Below, in pieces: positions 10,577 through 11,097 of a DNA stretch of 64,000 nt. Made by a program: the position numbers and the translations under genes. The notes under the pieces are model-generated. The model saw nothing but the letters and a program-made list of their open reading frames with translations, ran no database searches and was not told the DNA's origin. The DNA comes from Schmidtea polychroa. Lineage: Eukaryota. The stretch is taken from contig CM097885.1 in the NCBI GenBank assembly GCA_044892525.1, positions 6,574,001 to 6,638,000 on the forward strand, read 5' to 3'. Each line of letters opens with the position of its first letter. The stretch's first letter is position 1.

Positions 10577-11097
10577 ATGTCTCAATTTATGGAAAATCTT
10601 TTAAGAGAACTCGTCAACAGGAATATTATGGAAAGCCTATGTTTCCTGGTCGATCGGACCGAAAAGATTATAGAAGGTAATCACATTGATTATGACGATG
10701 TGATCAATTCTGATTGTCTCGAAACCAAAAAATTCTATTTTAATAGAATTTTTAACTGTCTATGCGACGATCAGATGAAGTGGACCCGAATACTAGTAGG
10801 GTTCGCTTATATGAAAATAATAATCCAAAGAAGTCTATGGGACTCAGAGCACTATTATCAGTGGTCTCAAGAAGTAATACTTTTATAATTTATATTTTAT
10901 TAATATTTATTTTCTAGATAATCAAGTCAAAGTTTCAACCATGGATTGAAGCCAATGGCGGATGGGGAGTACTCAATCAACTCGCCAGAAATGCAAAAGA
11001 AATAGACGATCAGAAAAGAAAATTTAAAAACTATGTAAAACTTGCAACAGGTGTTGCTATTTTGTATATTTTAACCAGATTTTTAAATAAAAATTAA
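10577..11097 (+). CDS. Bcl-2 family protein, 158 aa, two exons (10577-10873, 10918-11097)
   Basis: BH1-like LCDDQMKWTRILVGFAY. After the 44-bp GT..CTAG intron, exon 2 reads IIKSKFQPWIEANGGWGVLNQ (BH2) ...KNYVKLATGVAILYILTRFLNKN* (tail anchor). Confidence 0.85.

Follow-up and report, generated by a model that had tools for sequence, protein, structure and literature searches.

A spliced Bcl-2-family gene inside a Polinton of Schmidtea polychroa, probably derived from the host bcl2-1 lineage

We found that a Polinton in the genome of the planarian Schmidtea polychroa carries a two-exon Bcl-2-family gene which appears to have been taken from the lineage of the host gene bcl2-1, and which has a short intron of its own at a different position from that of the host gene. 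The window, by which we mean the whole stretch of DNA that was analysed, comprises 64,000 nucleotides (GenBank assembly GCA_044892525.1, contig CM097885.1, positions 6,574,001 to 6,638,000 of the forward strand), and positions are given within it. Judging from its donor and its motifs, the product is probably, at odds of roughly two to one, a tail-anchored mitochondrial pro-survival protein which would bind host BH3 helices and block permeabilisation where the element is active.

Polintons have long terminal inverted repeats, AG..CT ends and a 6-bp target duplication. All of these were found in an element of 18,209 bp at 8812..27020, which begins with AGTAG, ends with CTACT and is flanked by the target-site duplication GGTCAA (8806..8811 and 27021-27026, + strand). 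The left terminal inverted repeat covers 8812..10397 and has its partner at about 25871-27020; the two contain an unequal number of short tandem repeats, and their arms are 100% complementary at 9560-9800/26417-26657 and 9774-10397/25871-26494. Inside the repeats lie a packaging ATPase (Pox_A32-like, 13485..14111, + strand, Pfam E = 3.6e-7), a retroviral-like integrase with a chromodomain (14863..15810, + strand, rve E = 9.4e-6, below the cut-off of that profile), an adenain-like cysteine protease (18334..18801, + strand, PF00770 (Peptidase_C5), E = 4.6e-6) and part of a TBP-like gene (12948..13169, − strand, PF00352, 34.5 bits against a cut-off of 22.9). An ORF of 1130 aa (21904..25296, + strand), in which polymerase motifs were seen by eye and which was compared across families, is presumably the polymerase, and an ORF of 407 aa (17166..18389, + strand; 77-83% identical in other families) and one of 351 aa, both conserved across Polinton families, are taken to be capsid genes, the former that of the major capsid protein; these labels are our own, from motifs, position and recall. 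The Pfam scan gave no match for the 407-aa ORF and no confirming match for the 1130-aa and 351-aa ORFs. The element is a Polinton of the adintovirus type, and its bounds, ends, target duplication and ATPase, integrase and protease genes confirm what a preliminary description of this DNA had claimed, namely that the Bcl-2 gene lies inside a Polinton.

The Bcl-2 gene is the first gene inside the left terminal repeat. Upstream of its start codon, CCAAT (10517-10521) and TATAAATA (10541-10548) were seen by eye and may form a promoter (10517..10548, + strand), if the two motifs have the meaning which we assume for them. An ORF of 166 aa (9971-10471, − strand) stands head-to-head with the gene, mostly within the terminal repeat, and is partly repeated at the right end (25914-26297, + strand); both of its ends are hydrophobic, it is 83% identical in a sister subfamily (B) and the Pfam scan gave no clear family for it. 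Elsewhere in the window we observed a DNA polymerase B fragment outside the element (30059-31114, − strand, PF03175, E = 3e-13), a hAT-like transposase ORF (37248-38564, + strand) and a tandem array with units of approximately 1,387 bp (40583-48166).

The unspliced reading frame of the gene starts at the ATG at 10577 and ends at 10888, giving the 103 aa described previously. Removal of an AT-rich, phase-0 GT-AG intron of 44 nt (10874..10917, + strand), which follows codon 99 and is absent from the host gene, gives the predicted product of 158 aa. Exon 1 (10577..10873, + strand) encodes 99 aa with helices 1-5 and the first half of helix 6, and exon 2 (10918..11097, + strand) encodes 59 aa and the stop codon, with the rest of helix 6, BH2, a linker and the tail anchor. 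Both the intron and the length of the product had been proposed in the preliminary description, and the intron is borne out by homology, conservation and selection. Exon 1 aligned end to end and without gaps to residues 37-126 of Bcl2-1 of Schmidtea mediterranea (E = 5e-9) and exon 2 did so to residues 127-182 (E = 1e-10); the exons therefore abut at 126|127 without a gap, which places the intron exactly at the join. Near the junction there are 14 in-frame GT-AG pairs of at least 30 nt, 6 of which leave the frame open, and only the pair at 10874-10917 gives the 12-residue Trp-to-Trp spacing of three bcl2-1 orthologues.

The intron was also found in other copies of the gene. GT..AG is present at the same codon in all 8 diverged copies examined, with lengths of 42, 45, 48 and 51 nt and differing sequences, the intron of subfamily B being an ATT microsatellite. 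It should be noted that the six-frame Pfam scan scores read-through and favours introns with a length of 3n. The 44-nt form was found in 30/30 near-identical loci including that of the window, although these were picked for near identity and are weak as evidence for conservation of the frame. Between subfamilies dN/dS was 0.11-0.34 for exon 2 (5 pairs), indicating that the frame after the intron is coding, and 0.08-0.13 for exon 1 (2 pairs, with dS saturated in 3 pairs); both exons are under purifying selection. Judged by these comparisons, the gene has a real spliceosomal GT-AG intron. Between subfamilies (window vs L046, L049 and L051) exon 1 has diverged more at synonymous sites (pS 0.65-0.81) than exon 2 (pS 0.40-0.51), perhaps due to recombination or to a constraint from splicing.

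We compared the gene to the Bcl-2 family profile PF00452, which has a curated cut-off of 31.4 bits. Scanned separately, the exons of the window's gene each fell below this value, exon 1 matching profile positions 12-67 (16.8 bits, E = 0.01) and exon 2 positions 86-100 (11.9 bits, E = 0.34), and the matches come in profile order. Sister copies read through with X were above the cut-off, at 34.6 and 33.1 bits, and the gene of a second Polinton family scored 32.7 bits. A structural model was made for the sister copy L098, which is 87% and 88% identical to the window's two exons (pLDDT 83.7). This model includes 10 intron-derived residues, and its alignment contained host Bcl-2 proteins, so that the evidence from the fold depends on the evidence from the sequence. 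The model was compared to 48,161 solved chains, and of the 50 rows listed the first 29 all had the Bcl-2 fold, with Bcl-xL as the best match (Z = 12.0, rmsd 2.8, 122 residues aligned) and the first unrelated row at Z = 6.0, values to be read with the aligner's warning that a Z of 13 may arise by chance between helical proteins. Foldseek returned Bcl-2 family chains only (best E = 1.6e-3, probability 1.0), with no match at E ≤ 0.001. A model of exon 1 alone was poor (pLDDT 64.5) and was not clearly matched to any fold; its highest Z, 6.2, was for an unrelated protein, and its lowest Foldseek E was 0.53. The gene was placed in Atlas clusters for Bcl-2 at 0.93 and 0.91, which is weak, as recognition was under the Atlas threshold. 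The structure prediction which had been proposed as a check thus gave a Bcl-2 helical bundle, as modelled for the sister copy.

A BH1-like segment (10763..10804), the BH2 motif WIEANGGW (10942..10965) and a hydrophobic C-terminal segment with basic flanks (11035..11085), all on the + strand, are present where they had been described. In the BH1-like segment Trp and Arg are kept and the Gly of NWGR is replaced by Thr. This replacement had been likened to divergent viral Bcl-2 proteins; the Thr is there, but host bcl2-1 and its orthologues read W-S-R and also have no Gly. Since bcl2-1 promotes survival in vivo without this Gly, the Thr is not the mark of a viral protein, nor does it speak against function. 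A residue other than Gly at this position changes BH3 selectivity in other proteins (PMC8998228). The C-terminal segment is moderately hydrophobic, with a best 17-residue Kyte-Doolittle mean of 1.62 and 4 K/R in the preceding 10 residues; it resembles the tail of bcl2-1 (1.39; about 2.7 in Bok-1 and Bok-2) and is a predicted tail anchor on the basis of hydropathy and basic flanks. No clear BH4 had been seen, and a BH4 sequence motif is indeed not evident, but an N-terminal helix 1 is present which aligns with that of the donor (helix 3-9 in the model, superposed from residue 1 on Bcl-xL residue 12). The BH3 consensus is L-x-x-x-G-D. In the alignment of copies we found no intact BH3, the Gly being absent and the Asp replaced by Asn in subfamilies B and C, so that the gene does not have the conserved BH3 motif which defines the Bak/Bax class.

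We then consider the origin of the gene. In phmmer comparisons the window's protein, with X at the junction, scored 66.4 bits to S. mediterranea Bcl2-1, 62.7 to an orthologue from a metagenome, 49.3 to the first exon of the bcl2-1 orthologue in its own genome, 36-38 to the second Polinton family, and 10.9 or less to 8 other rows from its own genome and both S. mediterranea Bok proteins. Burro retrotransposons, at approximately 10-11 bits, were rejected as the direct donor on these scores. Sequence comparison thus names the bcl2-1 lineage as donor, this being by far the best host match among the rows compared, and supports the host-derived origin suggested in the preliminary description. The host paralogues were the 150 best of 909 candidates from a six-frame PF00452 scan of the genome, and multi-exon paralogues may therefore be missing from these comparisons. 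Near one contig end (L031-L037; G000:C4, about 89.9-90.8 Mb) lies a cluster of seven host genes of the Bcl-2 family which are almost identical to one another and have NWGR and a BH3-like stretch.

The S. mediterranea entry ACW83059.1 (C9WPR4) is bcl2-1, FJ807655.1, according to a row of the supplement of PMC4993586, and RNAi of bcl2-1 leads to systemic cell death and lysis of planarians (PMC6970515, PMC4993586). Its host orthologue (L042/L067) is a single locus, at 86-91% identity, with two coding exons, and an 89% match of a host gene to an S. mediterranea entry is in keeping with a Schmidtea host. A 53%-identical orthologue was found on a metagenome contig which resembles an mRNA, suggesting that bcl2-1 is older than the genus. 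The Polinton protein is like Bcl2-1 in its gap-free alignment over 146 residues, its W-x-R BH1 without Gly, its BH2 and its tail; it differs in being only 24-29% identical and in being shorter, by about 11 residues at the N-terminus and about 15 in the loop which follows helix 1.

The phylogeny against host paralogues which had been suggested as a check gave moderate support. Polinton genes grouped with bcl2-1 at 82/93 in a tree of 17 rows, which left out 6 rows (2 Burro, L091, L088 and 2 S. mediterranea Bok), and at 88/97, with Burro inside the group, in a tree of 19 rows, which left out 4 (L091, L088 and the 2 Bok); the deep nodes of the tree of all 23 rows were not resolved. Of 1,374 candidates in a profile search for relatives, 4 proteins were returned, of which 3 are named entries from S. 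mediterranea, and for this reason the trees have no outgroup from beyond the flatworms.

The direction of transfer was probably from host to element, because it is the host gene which holds the ancestral intron. This intron, of 3 kb, lies directly after GGW, an intron boundary which is conserved in pro-survival Bcl-2 genes (PMC8998228). The Polinton gene, unlike the host gene, reads through GGW into the tail unbroken, so that it was either captured from an mRNA or has lost the host intron, and its own intron is 16 codons upstream. The preliminary description had contrasted an intron before BH2 with the usual animal site: the position is indeed odd, but the host gene has the usual intron and that of the Polinton gene is another one. 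A GT-AG insert was also observed in the integrase gene (15113-15184, + strand), consisting of ATT repeats with AG|GT at both ends. It is 72 nt long in the window and 80 and 117 nt in subfamily B, and is absent in the second Polinton family. Since one family has inserts in both its integrase and its Bcl-2 gene and the second family has no integrase insert, gain of introns within the Polinton lineage is the simplest reading.

Unlike bcl2-1, which is found at one host locus, the Polinton gene sits in a mobile element and at no fewer than 150 places. We searched 781 Mb of genome, mostly in four contigs. The gene region was matched at approximately 100% in all 40 scored places (best 40 of 1,631 candidates) and an identical exon 2 is encoded at 118 of 150 scored places (150 of 1,924 candidates), figures which are lower bounds and not copy numbers; the copy number is very high. 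When the window's proteins were mapped on the flanks, the gene was found in the same place in the sister subfamilies B and C. Two rearrangements were seen among the copies: L072-L073 (G000:C1:203690001-203710000) form a palindrome in which the Bcl-2 gene and its neighbours occur twice, in inverted orientation, around broken polymerase pieces, and in L077-L079 the polymerase runs in the opposite direction to the capsid genes, which is not so in the window's copy or in L069-L071, the other copy of subfamily B.

The second Polinton family, in which the polymerase is 59-61% identical, has an intronless Bcl-2 relative of 144 aa with the same neighbour gene adjoining it. This relative is closer to Bcl2-1 than the window's gene (about 40-45% identical), and has a shorter tail and Lys at the position of the BH1 Arg. 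Intronless genes of this family were found at L053-L058, L086 and L103-L113, with the context mapped for 2 loci only, and a TBP-like gene is present here too (L054, 274-723, − strand, PF00352, 53.7 bits). As to one or two captures by the two families, support was 51/50 in the 17-row tree.

Taken together, the donor's role, the Trp and Arg of BH1 along with BH2, the bcl2-1-like tail, the lack of a conserved BH3 and purifying selection argue for a pro-survival role. In the account which we favour, a Schmidtea Polinton took an accessory gene from the host bcl2-1 lineage, in a copy which would have had no intron at the host BH2 site (by mRNA capture or later loss). Its lineage would then have acquired a short, AT-rich intron of its own, much as happened in the integrase gene. 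After removal of the 44-nt intron by the splicing machinery of the host, the tail of the 158-aa product would insert into the mitochondrial outer membrane. There the groove, to which both exons contribute, would take up the BH3 helix of a Bak-like or BH3-only host protein, anchored by the BH1 arginine, and release of cytochrome c would be blocked. Adenoviruses use E1B-19K in this way, and the Polinton protein may likewise prevent the death of the cell during replication, integration or packaging of the element's DNA. Given the low identity to the donor, the binding partners may have changed. Polintons of S. mediterranea are repressed by SMEDWI-2 piRNAs and are desilenced during normal differentiation (PMC8532177), which may be the time at which a gene of this kind is expressed.

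The alternative that deserves most attention, although we think it unlikely, is that the protein keeps the Bcl-2 fold and no longer acts on Bak or BH3, serving instead as a decoy or in autophagy or immune signalling, as certain proteins of poxviruses and herpesviruses with this fold do. The divergence from bcl2-1, the long stem branch of the Polinton genes (0.84 in the 17-row tree) and the Thr at the Gly position are consistent with this, and viral Bcl-2 proteins can act outside the groove, on Beclin-1 or on NF-kB signalling (PMC7022251). However, the BH1 Trp and Arg, BH2 and the tail anchor have all been kept, and the L098 model is nearer to Bcl-xL, Bcl-2, A179L and Bfl-1 (Z = 11-12) than to vaccinia A46 or A49 (Z = 5.2-5.3). 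There is only a slim chance that the protein is pro-apoptotic, either as a Bak/Bax-like protein or as a dominant inhibitor of host Bcl2-1, and acts in late particle release or cell killing. A multi-domain fold with a tail anchor is compatible with both classes, and a planarian BCL2 has been termed 'pro-apoptotic' though it is required for survival (PMC3566077); the conserved BH3 needed for pro-apoptotic activity (PMC7022251) is however missing, and the donor is pro-survival (PMC6970515, PMC4993586).

It is similarly improbable that the gene is a silent passenger which was functional in past lineages, with a copy number that reflects a burst of the element and with piRNAs keeping it off. The piRNA repression noted above fits this, several older copies have stops or frameshifts, and dN/dS between the two closest rows (C1 and C2) is about 0.5, from very few changes. 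On the other hand, the youngest family keeps its frame, weakly in the 30 loci chosen as near-identical and in 149/150 scored places for exon 2, and desilencing of Polintons belongs to normal differentiation (PMC8532177).

The weakest alternative concerns the intron itself. None of the 15 joints listed out of 21, from contigs of 4 of 14 runs on 10400-12200, matched the intron; none of the 14 runs is on record as RNA, and the joint rows all come from the deep run X6. Searches with the exon 1 protein returned unspliced relatives only (1 match among 2 candidates; 1 match), and the database entries for the gene are 103-108-aa unspliced gene calls, which are likely to be intron-blind calls on short contigs. 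In run X1, from one study and RNA by guess, the start of two contigs falls exactly on 10918, and the end of one on 11493. A candidate short GT-AG intron of 45 nt was seen by eye at 11492-11536 (− strand), which would extend an acidic ORF (11181-11438) to an upstream ATG; the X1 contig ends at 10918 and 11493 are where spliced and unspliced forms of the two predicted introns would meet, and are a hint only. That the 44 nt are a frameshifting insertion, or that the product is the 103-aa ORF, is very improbable in spite of these entries and joints, given GT..AG at one codon across subfamilies with its length free to vary, purifying selection on exon 2 and the exact end-to-end match to bcl2-1.

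If the protein is pro-survival, its effects may reach beyond a single element. As a speculation on which we would place little weight, bcl2-1 may have been taken more than once, by the spliced and intronless Polinton families and perhaps by Burro, and hundreds of copies, coming on as piRNA silencing relaxes in differentiation, could add to the anti-death activity of host Bcl2-1 and shape cell turnover in the animal.

Bcl-2 genes have been described from related elements. Adintoviruses carry homologues of Bcl2 and IAP (PMC8502044, Starrett et al. 2021), with three Bcl2 labels in Fig. S2 of the supplement. The gene described here is like these, by description only, as an accessory gene of an animal Polinton or adintovirus; the annotation there is a single sentence and the searchable text gives no donor, intron or flatworm host. 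The supplement, which is readable only in part, may hold a flatworm example. A BCL2-like domain has also been reported in planarian Burro LTR retrotransposons (PMC6431247), which are alike in being planarian mobile elements with Bcl-2 cargo in the same tree group (88/97), and unlike in that the domain belongs to a polyprotein, has no intron and is on a very long branch. At Burro-like loci (L080-L084, L087, L092-L094) we observed a fusion-glycoprotein domain (PF24664, E = 9e-44) after the Bcl-2 domain; the best non-Burro scores of this Bcl-2 domain were to the bcl2-1 group and were low (16 bits).

With viral Bcl-2 proteins (E1B-19K, ASFV A179L, iridovirus and herpesvirus vBcl-2) the protein shares, in its predicted structure, a compact Bcl-2 fold with a tail (A179L Z = 11.0). 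The best BFVD match was an isopod iridovirus BCL2-like protein (E = 0.024), and an Atlas cluster in which 20% of members are E1B-19K scored 0.86, which is a lead only. Unlike these viral genes, the Polinton gene goes back to a gene of flatworms and is interrupted by a spliceosomal intron; no kinship was shown at the sequence level, and a scan of viral contigs (382 stretches) gave no relative. Neither a Bcl-2 gene in a planarian Polinton nor the origin of such a gene from bcl2-1 was described in any paper that we found, in a search which lay outside most subscription journals and Repbase reports. Bcl-2 genes in adintoviruses and Polintons are thus already known, and what this gene adds is the named donor and the exchange of introns.

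The Bcl-2 cargo of animal Polintons has so far been a matter of annotation only, and here it has a donor with a lethal RNAi phenotype. The gene also preserves, within a virus-like element, a record of intron exchange, in which that of the host was lost and another was gained. Annotation of planarian Bcl-2 genes and the design of RNAi against them must reckon with hundreds of element-borne homologues. As RNAi, cell-death assays and a known piRNA control of Polintons are available in planarians, it is practical to ask there whether Polintons control the death of host cells, and a Polinton accessory gene which did so would bear on whether Polintons live as viruses.
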